A DNA stretch of 64,000 nucleotides from NCBI GenBank assembly GCA_018239665.1, contig JAFEGV010000001.1, positions 24,797 through 88,796 on the forward strand, given 5' to 3'. A program made the position numbers and the translations under genes. Within the stretch, counting starts at the first letter, position 1. Every line of letters starts with the position of its first letter. The stretch comes from Verrucomicrobiota bacterium. GTDB taxonomy: Bacteria; Chlamydiota; Chlamydiia; Chlamydiales; Rhabdochlamydiaceae. Shown in pieces: positions 393-6,351 of the stretch. The notes below the pieces were generated by a model. That model was not told where the DNA came from and made no database searches. It worked only from the letters and a program-made list of their open reading frames with translations.

Positions 393-1667
393 TCAGCTAA
401 CAGTTAACTGACTCACTTCGGTGGGTTCCTGCTTCATTGAACGGTTTGACTGTACCCGCTCTCCACAGGCTAACAAGCGATATCCTCGCTCTAAAATATT
501 GATTGCACCGACCGTGTCGGCGTTATTCTCATACTCACACTCGACACACTTGAACTGGGCTTGTGTCTTGCGGTTGTCCTCAGATACATGACGACAGCAC
601 GGACAGGTTTGGCTAGTGTTGTATGCAGGCACAACAAGCAACATCCCGCCATTCCATTCCAGCTTGTATTCTAGCTGGCGGCGGAACTCGCCCCATCCCT
701 GATCCAGAATACTGCGGTTCAGTCTGGATTTCTGCTGCACCCCCCTACCCGGTTGTTCTTGTGTTCCTGCTGCTGATTTAGACATCTTACTTACCTGCAA
801 ATCTTCAATGCAAACGATCGCGTGGTTTTGACTGATCGTTGTTGTAGTTTTATGCAGGAAGTCTTTTCGGGCATTTGCTATGACCGTATGAATCTTCTGA
901 ACTTTGGCTTTCGCCTTTTTCCAATTATTGCTGAATTTAACTTTACGGCTCATGCGCCGTTGGTATTTGGCTAATCGTTGTTGGTGTTTTTTGAAGCTAT
1001 TGAGTGGTGCGATATGACTGCCATCGTTCATGGTAGCAAAACGGGCAATGCCAACATCGATACCTATTGCAGTTGTGGCTGTTGGAACGGACGGTTCGAC
1101 TGCGCGTTTTGTTTGAATCGACACAAACCACTTTCCACCATTGCTGGATACGGTGACATTGCACAGATCGCCTACTACGTTGCGGCTGTTGCGATAACGC
1201 AACCAACCGAGTTTCGGCAGGAAAATGCGGCTGTTGTCCTGGTCGAGTTTGATTTGTGTATGATCGGGATAGCGAAAACTATCGCCATTGCCTTTCCGCT
1301 TAAAACGTGGAAAGTCGGCGCGCTTGGCAAAGAAGTTTTTGTACGCTTTTTCCAAGTCTTTAAGGGCGTGTTGCTGTGGGTGGCAGGGAGCTTCTTTGAG
1401 CCAAGGTGTTTCCGTACCATTGCGCCAATCGGTAAGCTGCTTGGCCATTGCCACATAACCGATGAACTTATTTCCGGCTTCGTAGTTTTCTTTTTGCAAT
1501 GCCAATGCCTTGTTAAATACAAAACGGCACGACCCAGCGAAGCGGCGCATATCGCGTTCTTGCTCGCCGTCCGGCTGTAGTTCATATTTAAATGCTTGCA
1601 GTCGTTGCATGACTAAATTATAATTTTGTCCATGAAAAAAAACAATGAGATTTGCCATGGTAGGCAC
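393..1667 (-). CDS. tnpB: IS605 OrfB-family TnpB (RuvC-like, RNA-guided endonuclease family)
   Basis: 424 aa. RuvC triad contexts are present (GIDVGI; IVCIEDLQV; NADTVGAINILERG), as is the C-terminal zinc ribbon CPCCRHV...KCVECEYENNAD. Length and motif order are typical of OrfB/TnpB. Confidence 0.9.
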   Translation of the reverse strand: MPTMANLIVFFHGQNYNLVMQRLQAFKYELQPDGEQERDMRRFAGSCRFVFNKALALQKENYEAGNKFIGYVAMAKQLTDWRNGTETPWLKEAPCHPQQHALKDLEKAYKNFFAKRADFPRFKRKGNGDSFRYPDHTQIKLDQDNSRIFLPKLGWLRYRNSRNVVGDLCNVTVSSNGGKWFVSIQTKRAVEPSVPTATTAIGIDVGIARFATMNDGSHIAPLNSFKKHQQRLAKYQRRMSRKVKFSNNWKKAKAKVQKIHTVIANARKDFLHKTTTTISQNHAIVCIEDLQVSKMSKSAAGTQEQPGRGVQQKSRLNRSILDQGWGEFRRQLEYKLEWNGGMLLVVPAYNTSQTCPCCRHVSEDNRKTQAQFKCVECEYENNADTVGAINILERGYRLLACGERVQSNRSMKQEPTEVSQLTVS

Positions 1668-2047
1668 TGTGTATTTTTAATGCACGTCCATCTGGTCTTT
1701 GTTACGAAATATCGCCGTGAGGTGTTCACAAAAGAGATACTGGACAACCTACGTCCTATCTTTTCTAGTGTCTGTGCGGATTTTGAAGCTGAACTAGTGA
1801 AGTTCGATGGCGAAGATGACCACGTCTACCTATTGGTGAATTATCCGCCGAAAATTACAGTGTCAAAAATAGTTAATAGCCTGAAGGGGGTATCGAGCCA
1901 CCTGATTCGCAAAAAAACTATCCTACTATCCGCCTAAAATTATGGGGTGGGGCATTGTGGTCTCCTAGTTATTTTGCAGGCAGTTGTGGAGGCGCTTCCA
2001 TTGCTATTATCCGTAAGTACATTGAACAGCAGAGAACGTCACACTAA
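1626..2047 (+). pseudogene. tnpA: IS200-type Y1 (HUH) transposase TnpA, interrupted by a frameshift in an A7 run (1911-1917)
   Basis: Frame 0 gives the HUH motif (MHVHLVFVTKYRR) and ...VNSLKGVSSHLIRKK, then stops at 1937. The conserved C-terminus NYPTIRLKLWGGALWSPSYFAGSCGGASIAIIRKYIEQQRTSH* continues in another frame from 1916 to 2047. One extra A in the run would restore a single ORF of about 140 aa. Confidence 0.8.
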
Positions 2048-2086
2048 CCAACAAACCGGGAAGCGGCTACGCCGTCAGCGCTCTTG

Positions 2087-2108
2087 ACCCCGCCCTAAAG
2101 GGCGGGGT
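2087..2108. repeat. Subterminal hairpin of the IS200/IS605 element (tnpA-proximal end, presumed LE)
   Basis: accccgccc-taaa-gggcggggt forms a perfect 9-bp stem with a TAAA loop, 40 nt after the reconstructed tnpA stop. Confidence 0.65.
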
Positions 2109-2140
2109 TTGCCGCGCAACAGATCAACAACAAAAGGTCT

Positions 2141-2381
2141 ATACCCAAATAACATCAAAAGTTGGGAACTAGACAAGACCAGTTCGTGCCCAAGGGCACT
2201 TCACCTGCTCCGCACTGCGAAGGTTCACCGAACCTTCTCGTGTGTCCGCAGCCTTGATTTTGAGTCAGGCGAAGCCGACGCCGAAGCAGCTCAACTTGAA
2301 TAAGTTGGGCGATGGAGGCGGATCTCAAAATCAACGGCTGGCGACGCCGTCAAAAACCAACTTTTGATGTTATTTGGGTAT
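2141..2381. repeat. Palindromic MITE-like element with perfect 25-bp terminal inverted repeats
   Basis: atacccaaataacatcaaaagttgg (2141-2165) is the exact reverse complement of ccaacttttgatgttatttgggtat (2357-2381). The interior holds nested hairpins (gtgcccaagggcac; gaaggttcaccgaaccttc; ccttgattttgag/ctcaaaatcaacgg). Confidence 0.75.
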
Positions 2382-2421
2382 ATTGAGTAACATTGTTCCT
2401 TTTTTGAAAAGGAGCCGATCC

Positions 2422-3147
2422 ATGTTGAAATATGCCGTTCTATTTTTTATTGCCCTTCTGACCCATGGGTATACCATTGAGCCGCTTATCGTCGGGATTG
2501 CCGGAGGAACCGGATCCGGTAAAACGACGCTTGCCGATAAGCTCATCGAAGCATTTCCGGGACAGTCCGTCCTCATTTGCCAAGACTCCTACTATAAAGA
2601 CATCTCCAACCAGCCGATCGAAGAGAGGGCAAAGGCCAATTTCGACCATCCCAATTCTTTAGACTTTGACCTCCTGCGTGATCATTTGGTCGCGCTTAAG
2701 AACAATCAATCGATCAACGTTCCCCAGTACAGCTTCCATACCCACTCGCGCGAACCTCAGTCCACCCTCCTGCAACCGGCCGCACTGATCATCGTTGAGG
2801 GCATTCTCATCTTTGCCGTTGATGAAGTCCGCGACCTCTTCGACATTAAGATCTATGTGGACACGGACGATGATGTGCGCCTGCTGAGAAGGATCGAAAG
2901 GGACATGAAAGAGCGCTCGCGCGATTTCTGCAGCATCCGCGACCAATACTTAAAAACTGTCAAGCCGATGCACGATTCGTTTGTCGAGCCAAGCAAACGG
3001 TTTGCCGACGTGATCATCCCTTCCGACCGCAGAAATGTCAAAGGGCTCAGCATGATCGTCTCCAAACTTAAGGAAGAACTCCAATTGCATCAGCAAACGC
3101 TAACTTGCAATACATCCGATCATGGCTATAATGAGGAAAAACAGTGA
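2422..3147 (+). CDS. udk: uridine kinase
   Basis: P-loop GIAGGTGSGKTTLA is present, with DSYY, NFDHPNSLDFDLL, IIVEGI and VDTDDDVRLLRRIERD boxes. I prefer the ATG at 2422 (AAGGAG 7 nt upstream) over the tracked TTG at 2374, which lies inside the inverted repeat. Confidence 0.88.
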   Translation: MLKYAVLFFIALLTHGYTIEPLIVGIAGGTGSGKTTLADKLIEAFPGQSVLICQDSYYKDISNQPIEERAKANFDHPNSLDFDLLRDHLVALKNNQSINVPQYSFHTHSREPQSTLLQPAALIIVEGILIFAVDEVRDLFDIKIYVDTDDDVRLLRRIERDMKERSRDFCSIRDQYLKTVKPMHDSFVEPSKRFADVIIPSDRRNVKGLSMIVSKLKEELQLHQQTLTCNTSDHGYNEEKQ

Positions 3148-3156
3148 AAAAAACGG

Positions 3157-4599
3157 ATGCGGATCTTACTTACTGGCGCCAACGGCTACATCGGGGCTAG
3201 GCTTTTGCCCCTTCTTCTTGAAGAGGGGCATCACGTCATTGCCCTGTTGCGCCATCCGAAACGCTTTGACATCTCTTCTCTTAGGGAAAAGCAGGTCACG
3301 ACGATCTTCGCGGACCTGCTGGACAAAGGCTCTTTAGAAAAGCTGCCTAAACAAATCGATGCAGCCTACTATCTCGTCCATTCGATGAGCGATTCCGCTA
3401 AAGACTTTTCCGAATTGGAAGAAGAGTCTGCAAAAAACTTCATCGAAGCTCTTGAAAAAACTGAAGCGAAGCAGATCGTCTATTTAAGCGGACTGAGCAG
3501 CGACGCATCCCTTTCCCCCCACCTCTCTTCCAGAAGAAAAGTGGAGCAGATTTTATCGCATGGCAGCATCCCCTGCACGACCCTTCGGTCCGGAGTGATC
3601 ATCGGGTCTGGAAGCGCCTCCTTTGAAATCATCAGGGACCTTGTGGAGAAGCTGCCTTTGATGATTGCCCCTCGCTGGGTGCGCAACAGGACGCAGCCAA
3701 TTGCCGTATCCGACGTGCTGTTCTATTTAAAAGCTGTTCTGAACAATCCCGATACTTTCAGAAAGGCATTTGAGATCGGAGGCCCGGATGTTTTGACATA
3801 TCGGGAAATGCTCCTGCGCTATGCTTCGATCCGTGGGCTGCGCCGTTATGTGATCAACGTTCCCGTTTTAACTCCCAAGCTCTCCTCTTATTGGCTTTAT
3901 TTCGTGACATCGACCAATTTTTCCCTTGCAAGCTCTCTTGTCGACAGCCTGCGCAATGAGACGATCTGTTCCGATTTTCAGATCCAAAAACTGATACCCC
4001 ATCAATGTTTAAAATATGAGGAAGCGATCTCGCGGGCCTTGGAAAAAATAGAACAAAACGCCGTTGTTTCCAGTTGGCGCGACGCCATAGTCTTAAGCCG
4101 TCTGCAGCCTAATTTCCAGGAGCACATACGGATCCCCGCTACAGGATGCTTGTCCAACAAGCAAAGGATTGAGATCCATGGCAATCCTCAAGCTTCCATC
4201 GATGCGCTATGGGCAATCGGCGGAGAGACCGGATGGTATTACGCGAACTGGGCCTGGAAAATCCGCGGGTTCGTCGATAAGCTCTGCGGCGGAGCAGGAC
4301 TTAACCGGGGCAGAACGAATACAGACAAGATTGAAACCGGCGACGCCATCGATTTTTGGCGCGTGCTGGCTGCTGATAAAACAAATGGCCGATTGCTGCT
4401 TTACGCAGAGATGAAACTCCCCGGAGAAGCTTGGCTCGAATTCAGGATCTGCCGCGATGGTCCCAAGACTTTTCTCGAGCAAACTGCGACATTCCGGCCT
4501 AAAGGGGTTCTAGGCCGGCTCTACTGGTATTCCCTTCTTCCCATCCACAATTTGATCTTCCATGGGATGGCAAGGGCCATAGTCCGCGGCAACAGTTAA
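3157..4599 (+). CDS. NAD(P)-binding SDR/NmrA-like protein with a C-terminal DUF2867-like domain
   Basis: The N-terminal Rossmann motif MRILLTGANGYIGARLL is present. The 480-aa two-domain layout resembles SDR-DUF2867 fusion proteins. Substrate is unknown. Confidence 0.6.
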   Translation: MRILLTGANGYIGARLLPLLLEEGHHVIALLRHPKRFDISSLREKQVTTIFADLLDKGSLEKLPKQIDAAYYLVHSMSDSAKDFSELEEESAKNFIEALEKTEAKQIVYLSGLSSDASLSPHLSSRRKVEQILSHGSIPCTTLRSGVIIGSGSASFEIIRDLVEKLPLMIAPRWVRNRTQPIAVSDVLFYLKAVLNNPDTFRKAFEIGGPDVLTYREMLLRYASIRGLRRYVINVPVLTPKLSSYWLYFVTSTNFSLASSLVDSLRNETICSDFQIQKLIPHQCLKYEEAISRALEKIEQNAVVSSWRDAIVLSRLQPNFQEHIRIPATGCLSNKQRIEIHGNPQASIDALWAIGGETGWYYANWAWKIRGFVDKLCGGAGLNRGRTNTDKIETGDAIDFWRVLAADKTNGRLLLYAEMKLPGEAWLEFRICRDGPKTFLEQTATFRPKGVLGRLYWYSLLPIHNLIFHGMARAIVRGNS

Positions 4600-5217: not shown

Positions 5218-5376
5218 GAGGGAATTGCAAAACTCATTTGCCCGTTAAAATCGCTCTTTTGAGGCTGTTTGCGCCCGTTCTCCTTCCCCGACCCACTAGG
5301 GGTCGGCCTCGTCGAACGGGCGCAAACAGCCTCAAAATCATCAATTTTTTCTGGCAAAGCAGTTTTGCAATTCCCT
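5218..5376. repeat. Family-1 palindromic intergenic element (type copy)
   Basis: The termini are perfect 17-bp inverted repeats: gagggaattgcaaaact (5218-5234) and agttttgcaattccctc (5360-5376). A nested perfect 24-bp inverted repeat lies at 5257-5280 / 5314-5337, with a central hairpin ccgaccc/gggtcgg. Confidence 0.85.
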
Positions 5377-5477: not shown

Positions 5478-5669
5478 TTAGCTCGACTTTGCACCTTTTT
5501 GGGTTCGAAGGCCTCGAGGTATTTGTTCTCGGGGAAGTTATTTATAACGGGAAAGGGTCCTTTAACCCTGTCCCGTTATAAATAATCTCCAAGTTCGACC
5601 TGCGGTCGAACGTCCGAGGGCAAATAGACGAGGCAGGCGAGCCCAAAAAGGCGCAAAGTCGAGCTTAGC
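5478..5669. repeat. Family-2 palindromic intergenic element, copy 1
   Basis: The arms ttagctcgactttgcacctttttgggttcg (5478-) and cgagcccaaaaaggcgcaaagtcgagcttagc (-5669) are near-perfect inverted repeats. Internal hairpins are gttatttataacggg...cccgttataaataa and gttcgacctgcggtcgaac. The architecture is the same as 63705-63894. Confidence 0.8.
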
Positions 5670-5697: not shown

Positions 5698-6351
5698 ATG
5701 CTGATGACTGATATCCATGTCCGTACTTTCGTGGGCCCGGCTTTAAGGACCTATTTGCACAGCATTGCAAAACTGCGGATGGATGTCTTTCGGGAATACC
5801 CTTTTTTGGAAGAACCGGACCTGACTTTGGAAACCGCGAGATTGAAGCGTTACCTGACCAGCAAGGAATCGATCGGCGTGCTAGTCTTCGACAATACGAC
5901 GCTCGTCGGCGTTTCCCTTGGCATCCCCTTAACTCTAGAGCGGGACGAGATCCAAAGGCCGTTTCTTGATCGGTTCCATGATATCTCGACCTACTTCTAC
6001 TTCGGGGAGTCGGTCCTGCTCAAGCAATACCGGAACAGGGGCATCGGCCATCACTTCTTTGATGCGCGCGAAGCCCATGTCAAGCATCTGATCCAGTACA
6101 AGCACATCTGCTTTTTTGATCCGGTCCGTCCTGAAGATGACCTGCATAAGCCTGCCGACTACTTGTCTCCGCATGACTTTTGGCGCAAGCGGGGCTATGT
6201 CCACTGCCCCGATCTGCATTGTAAATTGGTATGGAAAGAACTAGAAGAAAAGCAACCTTCTGAAAAGTCTTTGACCTTCTGGATCAAAGACCTTCACGAC
6301 GATTACGCGCCTTTTGAGAGATCAAATGAATCCAAGAAAGGATTGTCTTGA
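5698..6351 (+). CDS. GNAT-family N-acetyltransferase (putative)
   Basis: Carries an acetyl-CoA-binding-like motif, LLKQYRNRGIGHHFF (Q/RxxGxG/A), in a 217-aa protein. Substrate is unknown. Confidence 0.5.
   Translation: MLMTDIHVRTFVGPALRTYLHSIAKLRMDVFREYPFLEEPDLTLETARLKRYLTSKESIGVLVFDNTTLVGVSLGIPLTLERDEIQRPFLDRFHDISTYFYFGESVLLKQYRNRGIGHHFFDAREAHVKHLIQYKHICFFDPVRPEDDLHKPADYLSPHDFWRKRGYVHCPDLHCKLVWKELEEKQPSEKSLTFWIKDLHDDYAPFERSNESKKGLS

Follow-up and report, generated by a model that had tools for sequence, protein, structure and literature searches.

Two long palindromes in the window, i.e., the stretch of 64,000 nucleotides that was analyzed, are very probably copies of a non-coding MITE of approximately 181 bp that derives from an insertion sequence of the IS701 family. 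The assignment as a MITE follows from the combination of terminal inverted repeats (TIRs), target-site duplications (TSDs), empty orthologous sites, a burst of copies in a related genome and a non-genic position. The family is ordinary selfish DNA, but its hairpin fold has been kept unusually well by compensating mutations. The window is part of contig C111 of a 2.56 Mb assembly in 219 contigs (G000), whose GTDB genus is the one that includes Candidatus Acheromyda pituitae (G001), family Rhabdochlamydiaceae. The two copies, A and B, and their parts are located as follows, with the columns referring to the alignment of copies described below.

5482-5663, better-folding strand is the + strand of the window: MITE copy A, 182 bp, nhmmer score 192 bits
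5477-5481: left TSD of copy A, CTTAG, the same pentamer on either flank
5664-5668: right TSD of copy A, CTTAG, the same pentamer on either flank
5482-5499, + strand: left TIR of copy A, CTCGACTTTGCACCTTTT
5646-5663, + strand: right TIR of copy A, the reverse complement of the left end
5533-5591, + strand: central hairpin of copy A, with an AT-rich stem and a GC-rich tip (columns 55-114)
5593-5611, + strand: one-sided GC hairpin of copy A, GTTCGACC-TGC-GGTCGAAC (columns 117-136)
63708-63888, better-folding strand is the + strand of the window: MITE copy B, 181 bp, nhmmer score 186 bits
63703-63707: left TSD of copy B, TTTAA
63889-63893: right TSD of copy B, TTTAA
63758-63816, + strand: central hairpin of copy B
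63818-63836, + strand: one-sided GC hairpin of copy B, GTTCGGCC-TCC-GGCCGAAC

The original prediction, which was made from the letters of the window, described one architecture present twice, at 5478-5669 and 63705-63894. This description holds, as copies A and B align end to end with 74% identity over their full length, contain their parts in the same order and have the same fold, namely a single long hairpin with an additional side hairpin. The folding energy is -124.4 kcal/mol for A (z = -15.8) and -111.6 kcal/mol for B (z = -14.7), both relative to dinucleotide shuffles. The 'outer arm' that was described earlier takes in the TSD, and the borders of the element have been refined to those listed above. 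Two other genomes, G160 and G004, have an IS701-type element whose right-end terminus coincides base for base with positions 1-12 of the left TIR of copy A (CTCGACTTTGCA).

Within 5482-5663 there is no ORF of at least 50 amino acids, and a search for promoter-like sites in A, B and their immediate surroundings gave none. For terminator-like sites, the two copies do not clearly exceed what is expected from shuffles. A search of Rfam 15 returned no family; the best matches were plant miRNA hairpins with 26 and 21.5 bits, compared to gathering thresholds of 66 and 144. From the neighboring genes that had been named earlier, Pfam confirms tdk and pyk, while the call of a GNAT protein finds no such support, as the 217-aa ORF concerned (window 5698-6351, + strand) matches no Pfam family at E <= 0.001. 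Copy B is located 33 bp upstream of the start of the gene at the uvrA position.

The ends of the element and the bases next to them have the properties of a transposon. Full copies are 179-183 bp long and contain no transposase gene. All of them have the TIRs CTCGACTTTG(Y)AC at both ends, and among 71 copies, over 90% have alignment columns 1-10 paired with columns 182-191. When the 10 copies of G000 are aligned together with their flanks, the similarity ends at CTCGACTTTG...CAAAGTCGAG. The five flanking bases match within each of these copies and vary among copies, i.e., TTTAA, CTTAG, TTAAA, CTAAG, TGAAC and others. In a set of 87 non-redundant copies from 14 genomes, a perfect 5-bp duplication is present in 48 cases and a duplication with one mismatch in 16, and several of the remaining copies have a 6-bp duplication. 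By chance, a perfect 5-bp match is expected with a probability of approximately 1/1024 per copy.

Orthologous sites in related genomes point in the same direction. In G001, the spacer between pyk and uvrA measures 22 bp and the element is absent, and in G003 this spacer contains only a short element of another palindromic family, family 1 (the MITE being family 2). The family-2 element is also absent from the tdk site in G001, G002 and G003, which belong to the same genus as the genome of the window. At the tdk site, however, the footprint is not that of a clean excision, as G000 is without approximately 70 bp that G001 keeps. Copies A and B are lineage-specific insertions.

The original prediction implicitly treated the palindromes as part of the host, i.e., as cis-regulatory elements or as a structured non-coding RNA family instead of mobile DNA. 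Such a function would fit with the strong covariation and the intergenic position of the copies, and their strand and orientation bias is compatible with a transcript. However, it does not explain the TIRs, the 5-bp duplications, the empty orthologous sites, the near-identical burst and the existence of a transposase-bearing IS701-family parent with the same ends, and it is further contradicted by the lack of a conserved context, an Rfam match or a promoter-like site. A host function as the origin of these repeats is therefore highly improbable, and the element is to be regarded as a transposon. For genome annotation, this means that 181-bp palindromes of this type should be masked as mobile DNA, and that no promoter, terminator or RNA gene should be ascribed to tdk, pyk or uvrA on the basis of them.

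The number of copies agrees with the designation as a MITE. An nhmmer profile made from the first BLAST matches was run on the G000 assembly and yielded 10 full-length copies and a truncated one, as well as several short forms reduced to the arms. The alternative in which the window would contain the only two copies, as the remnant of a segmental duplication, is ruled out by this copy number and by the differing flanks. The short forms of G000 are 53-87 bp long (C140:16858-16944, C219:3987-4067, C137:23419-23471 and C149:2728-2789) and have little beyond the two termini. Presumably they arose from family 2 by internal deletion, or represent minimal MITEs.

Of 81 related genomes, BLAST detects the element in 16. 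These belong without exception to one GTDB family, in which they cover 13 of 72 genera, and the element is absent from the 32 other sampled families of the order. The highest number was seen in G010, with approximately 48 elements; a 12-base terminus has 51 forward and 46 reverse matches in this genome, compared to 0 for a reversed control. The 181-bp copies of G010 are near-identical to one another and occur in both orientations, and this near-identity indicates a recent burst. The MITE family accounts for part of the fragmentation of chlamydial MAGs. One of the G010 copies (L095, G010:C5:3623-3923) is a standard 181-bp copy except for approximately 21 central bases that read N, and was excluded from the alignments.

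G010 also contains a 160-bp sister MITE (L107-L112, e.g., C21:51920-52079) with the same termini and a different interior, save for a similar GC-tipped central hairpin. Three of its copies are located at GTAAC targets and two are seemingly recombinant, having either unmatched flanks or the composition of a 181/160 chimera. An element of the 160-bp type was additionally encountered in a contig titled 'MAG: Chlamydia trachomatis isolate MaH-04nov19-293' (L289, CAMAVL010000115.1), while elsewhere this type is found only in environmental chlamydiae. The label of this contig is probably that of a misclassified environmental MAG.

Concerning their genomic position, 81 copies with flanks were compared, of which 38 lie between tandem genes, 25 between divergent and 14 between convergent genes; three are located at a contig edge and one is doubtfully placed within an ORF. 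Consequently, 80 of the 81 are situated outside called ORFs, and even the single 'inORF' copy has complete ORFs at 13 and 44 bp to either side. Approximately 24 copies lie within 3 nt of the stop codon of a neighboring gene, which is explained by the targets often containing TAA or TAG. No conserved genomic context was found across the flanked copies. The two copies of the window both lie in divergent promoter regions, as was initially noted, but such regions are not a preferred site of the repeat. With a minority of the flanked copies in such regions and more of them between tandem genes, the placement in the window is coincidental.

The same applies to the vicinity of family 1. A family-1 core was reported next to both window copies and is indeed present in G000, at 117 bp from A and at 9 bp from B. 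Within a radius of 200 bp, no such core occurs near any of the other nine G000 copies, so the adjacency is real but coincidental and the two families do not form a composite unit. Family 1 is a small palindromic element as well, and it is likewise missing from the orthologous tdk site of relatives, but its termini differ from those of family 2 and both are coupled only by chance in the window. At the pyk/uvrA site, family 2 has inserted at TTTAA, either beside a family-1 remnant or within it. The tdk-adjacent element of family 1 (window 5218-5376) is absent from G001 (L116) and G003 (L114). In the latter genome, the tdk spacer contains a different insert of approximately 175 bp with a family-1-like terminus, only a few bases from the position of family 2 in G000. 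The tdk spacer is a repeated landing site.

A wider pattern search of relatives led to a candidate for the parent of the MITE. Contig C25 of G160 contains an element of 1501 bp that runs from CTCGACTTTGTACAC... to ...CTGCAAAGTCGAG, includes a single ORF of 417 aa and is flanked by a TTGAT/TTGAT duplication. The encoded protein scores 281.9 bits on the NCBIfam model NF049999 for IS701 (cut-off 170) and 80.2 bits on PF13546, DDE_5 (cut-off 27). Judged by these sequence features, this IS701-family element appears to be the autonomous partner of the MITE. Remnants of the parent with the same termini have been identified in G004, which belongs to the genus of the window, and in G118, G041, G007 and G025; they are 70-87% identical to the 417-aa protein. 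Outside the window, G000 itself has kept 81 bp from the right end of the parent as a remnant next to a membrane-protein gene (C144:25370-25449), with 90% identity to the end in G004.

The relation between MITE and parent is apparent from the ends. In the intact element and in the remnants, 12-18 bases match the MITE exactly at both ends. The left end of the insertion sequence, CTCGACTTTGTACA, and its right end, CTCGACTTTGCAACTTTT, are the two terminus variants of the MITE, in which the variants ..TTTGTACA and ..TTTGCAAC mirror the left and right end of the parent. Moreover, many copies of the MITE keep the left/right polarity, which is visible as a T.G 'pair' at columns 11/181 in 28 copies. 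The interiors of MITE and parent have no similarity.

Members of the IS701 family are described as having a length of 1400-1550 bp and direct repeats of 4 bp, and for emerging IS families repeats of 'around five' bp are mentioned (PMC2266710). With 1501 bp and one ORF, the parent falls within the published range. Its duplication, on the other hand, is 5 bp in the intact insertion sequence and 5-6 bp in the MITEs, and not the listed 4 bp (PMC2266710). This 5-bp duplication is a variant of the IS701 family and does not exclude the element from it. The MITE shares its termini with the parent and has short duplications at a near-palindromic, YTNAR-like target, while it differs from the parent by its near-perfect 181-bp palindrome and unrelated interior. 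Its host phylum is Chlamydiota.

In the genome of the window, no DDE_5 (PF13546), DDE_Tnp_1 or IS1634 transposase was found, and a tblastn search with the parent transposase gave nothing. The copies in this genome are orphans of which the transposase is gone. An intact IS701-type transposase was likewise not found in the copy-rich genomes G000, G001, G003 and G010, which are incomplete MAGs in which repeats are often unassembled. From the ends and duplications that MITE and parent have in common, we infer mobilization in trans, which would then also apply to these copy-rich genomes, although the burst in G010 seems to have no visible driver. In the proposed route, the DDE transposase of a 1.5-kb parent would recognize, in trans, the 14-18-bp ends CTCGACTTTGTACA... 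and CTCGACTTTGCAAC... of the MITE. The insertions themselves are located at AT-rich, near-palindromic pentamers such as TTTAA, TTAAA, CTTAG, GTAAC and TTGAA, with a duplication of five, or occasionally six, bases.

Some loci that could have represented autonomous copies were rejected. Inverted pairs of TIRs at a distance of 1.4-2.4 kb (G000:C14; G010:C10, C30 and C2) enclose ordinary genes and no transposase. Among the PF01609 loci of the 16 MITE-bearing genomes, the terminus is present only on an IS1634 element and on a broken copy in G025.

This IS1634 element provides a competing explanation, in which the MITEs are moved by an IS1634-family transposase instead of by an IS701-type parent, at least in the burst of G010. 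In this genome, an intact element of 1914 bp (NF033559, 372 bits) has ends, CCCGACTTTGACACCTGA, that match nine of the first 10 bases of the MITE, and its subterminal words GAAGGCC and TTTTTG are shared with the MITE as well. In general, the IS1634-family ends in G010 and other relatives, CCCGA(C/G)TTTGACAC, resemble those of the MITE. The duplications reported for the IS1634 family are AT-rich tracts of 5-6 bp (PMC2266710), exactly as in the MITEs, and no IS701-type transposase was seen in G010. However, a comparison of the IS1634 ends, CCCGAC/GTTTGACAC, with CTCGACTTTG(Y)AC shows that the agreement of 9/10 is followed by a required indel after base 10, whereas the IS701-type element matches 12-18 bases exactly at both ends and also shares the end polarity and the 5-bp duplication. 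Besides, the IS1634 copies examined lack a 5-6-bp duplication, one of them being flanked by a 414-bp direct repeat instead, and genomes positive for IS1634 are not enriched for the MITE. IS1634 as the parent was demoted in view of the exact ends of the IS701-type element in G160, and a role of its transposase is unlikely.

The IS1634 copy with the long repeat is located in L091 (G131:C1:1016876-1021423). It occupies positions 1277-3183 of this locus (1907 bp), has the ends CCCGAGTTTGACAGCTGA and is flanked by a perfect direct repeat of 414 bp. The latter resembles the long variable duplications that are reported only for IS1634 and IS1549, while other copies of the same insertion sequence have no short duplication.

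The second property of the family, besides its mobility, is the preservation of its fold. Pairing was analyzed in an alignment of 71 distinct copies (A2), in which the full structure comprises 75 pairs. RNAalifold predicts a long hairpin for these copies, with compensatory changes in 35 of 53 pairs. In the full structure, 94.3% of the cells are able to pair, compared to 85.2% in shuffles and 34-52% when the partners are slid. Changes on both sides occur in 44 of the 75 pairs, compared to 28 +/- 2 in shuffles. The number of cells with a double change amounts to 494, compared to 146 +/- 14 in shuffles and 49-120 in the slid controls, although these counts overstate the number of independent events as the copies are related. 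The earlier suggestion that both stems keep pairing despite their sequence divergence is thereby borne out, since double compensatory changes are present in 17 of the 22 pairs of the central hairpin and in 5 of the 8 pairs of the one-sided GC hairpin; at a single position, as many as five pair types occur. The covariation is strongest far from the ends to which the transposase binds, so that co-evolution of ends and transposase is ruled out as the explanation. Probably, the whole element is held as a long hairpin with a side hairpin through compensatory substitutions.

Alternatively, the compensatory changes could be a mechanical by-product of correction of one arm by the other, through hairpin-templated repair or gene conversion, or of masters that arose de novo by fold-back. 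In favor of such a process, the inverted repeat is long and near-perfect, far exceeding the 14-18 bp that the two ends of the parent have in common. Most of the double changes separate whole subfamilies and not single copies, and recombinant or chimeric copies do exist (L107, L109). The one-sided hairpin, however, is not mirrored in the other arm and still covaries, and a strand-symmetric process predicts neither a tolerance of G.T over A.C on one strand nor a bias relative to the orientation of genes. Both were observed.

In the 71 copies, G.T cells outnumber A.C cells by 217 to 76 when the polarity column is excluded. G.T is in excess of A.C at 35 pairs, while the reverse is true for 15 (p = 0.007). 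Singleton mismatches, which are presumably recent, are approximately symmetric (14 G.T and 22 A.C), in contrast to the inherited ones, and this difference also speaks against arm correction. Folded as RNA, the strand named in the list above surpasses its complement by approximately 11 kcal/mol on average, and in 64 of the 71 copies it is the better one. Of the 38 tandem-gene loci, 29 have the better-folding strand in the sense orientation and nine in the opposite one (p = 0.0017); the independence of these loci was checked by comparison of their flanks.

The excess of G.U, the advantage of one strand in folding and the orientation bias fit with selection on read-through transcripts. A symmetric DNA cruciform or arm-to-arm correction is rejected as the source of these strand biases, because it predicts none of the three; as an explanation of the compensatory changes in general, arm correction is regarded as rather doubtful. 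From the covariation and strand statistics, RNA-level selection on the co-transcribed element emerges as most likely, although the orientation bias could also result from an insertion preference or from the direction of replication. Lineages with a compact and stable hairpin in the transcript might be tolerated, or might be useful as a structure at mRNA ends, and would thus persist and spread. More specifically, it is tentatively suggested that the fold of one strand is under selection, either because the element is a co-opted or tolerated transcribed RNA module or because a folded single strand acts in transposition. In the first case, it might serve, for example, as a stabilizer of mRNA ends, as a processing site or as an insulating hairpin for the neighboring genes. 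For DDE elements of the IS4/IS701 group, the second case would come as a surprise.

The closest functional analog is bcr1 of the Bacillus cereus group, a mobile and intergenic element of approximately 155 bp with 5-bp direct repeats (Klevan et al. 2007, reviewed in PMC3184786). According to the account given in that review, its distribution is not conserved, its transcription has been shown and compensatory changes maintain a fold with a presumed RNA-level role (PMC3184786). The chlamydial element has no sequence relationship with bcr1 and differs in host, and the bcr1 fold is cruciform-like with two stem-loops. In addition, transcription was shown for bcr1, while the chlamydial element is known from sequence and has an identified parent with a transposase.

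Correia/NEMIS elements in Neisseria, Nezha in cyanobacteria and Chunjie in Geobacter likewise have TIRs as in an insertion sequence, direct repeats and a length of 130-235 bp. They form hairpins of approximately -100 kcal/mol or more, are intergenic and have empty and filled orthologous sites (PMC3184786). They differ from the chlamydial MITE by other parent IS families and other lengths of the duplication. To our knowledge, an extent of covariation as found here (44 of 75 pairs), a strand asymmetry or an orientation bias has not been reported for these three elements. A full-text literature search did not retrieve a description of the chlamydial IS701-derived element, nor of MITEs in chlamydiae. 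The family is not a new kind of element; what distinguishes it is how deep the covariation goes, together with its strand asymmetry and its biased orientation. As a natural data set it is clean: the lineages number in dozens, the parent is known and the empty sites are clear. It could help to answer the old question of why bacterial MITEs stay folded, and the G·U tolerance and the orientation bias make an RNA-level answer testable.

Finally, a scan of 185,579 species genomes recovered MITE-sized elements with the termini described above from many MAGs of Parachlamydiales, Rhabdochlamydiaceae and Waddliaceae, and from Chloroflexota. The elements in the Chloroflexota MAGs (L259, L263, L269, L273, L276, L277, L279 and others) are 163-184 bp long and have the identical 14-bp terminus CTCGACTTTGTACA. 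They are flanked by CTNAG duplications of 5 bp, their interiors are unrelated and their folds are weaker (-49 to -70 kcal/mol). The presence of MITEs with the same 14-bp termini in these hosts shows that miniature derivatives have arisen from this IS701 lineage again and again, in phyla that are far apart.
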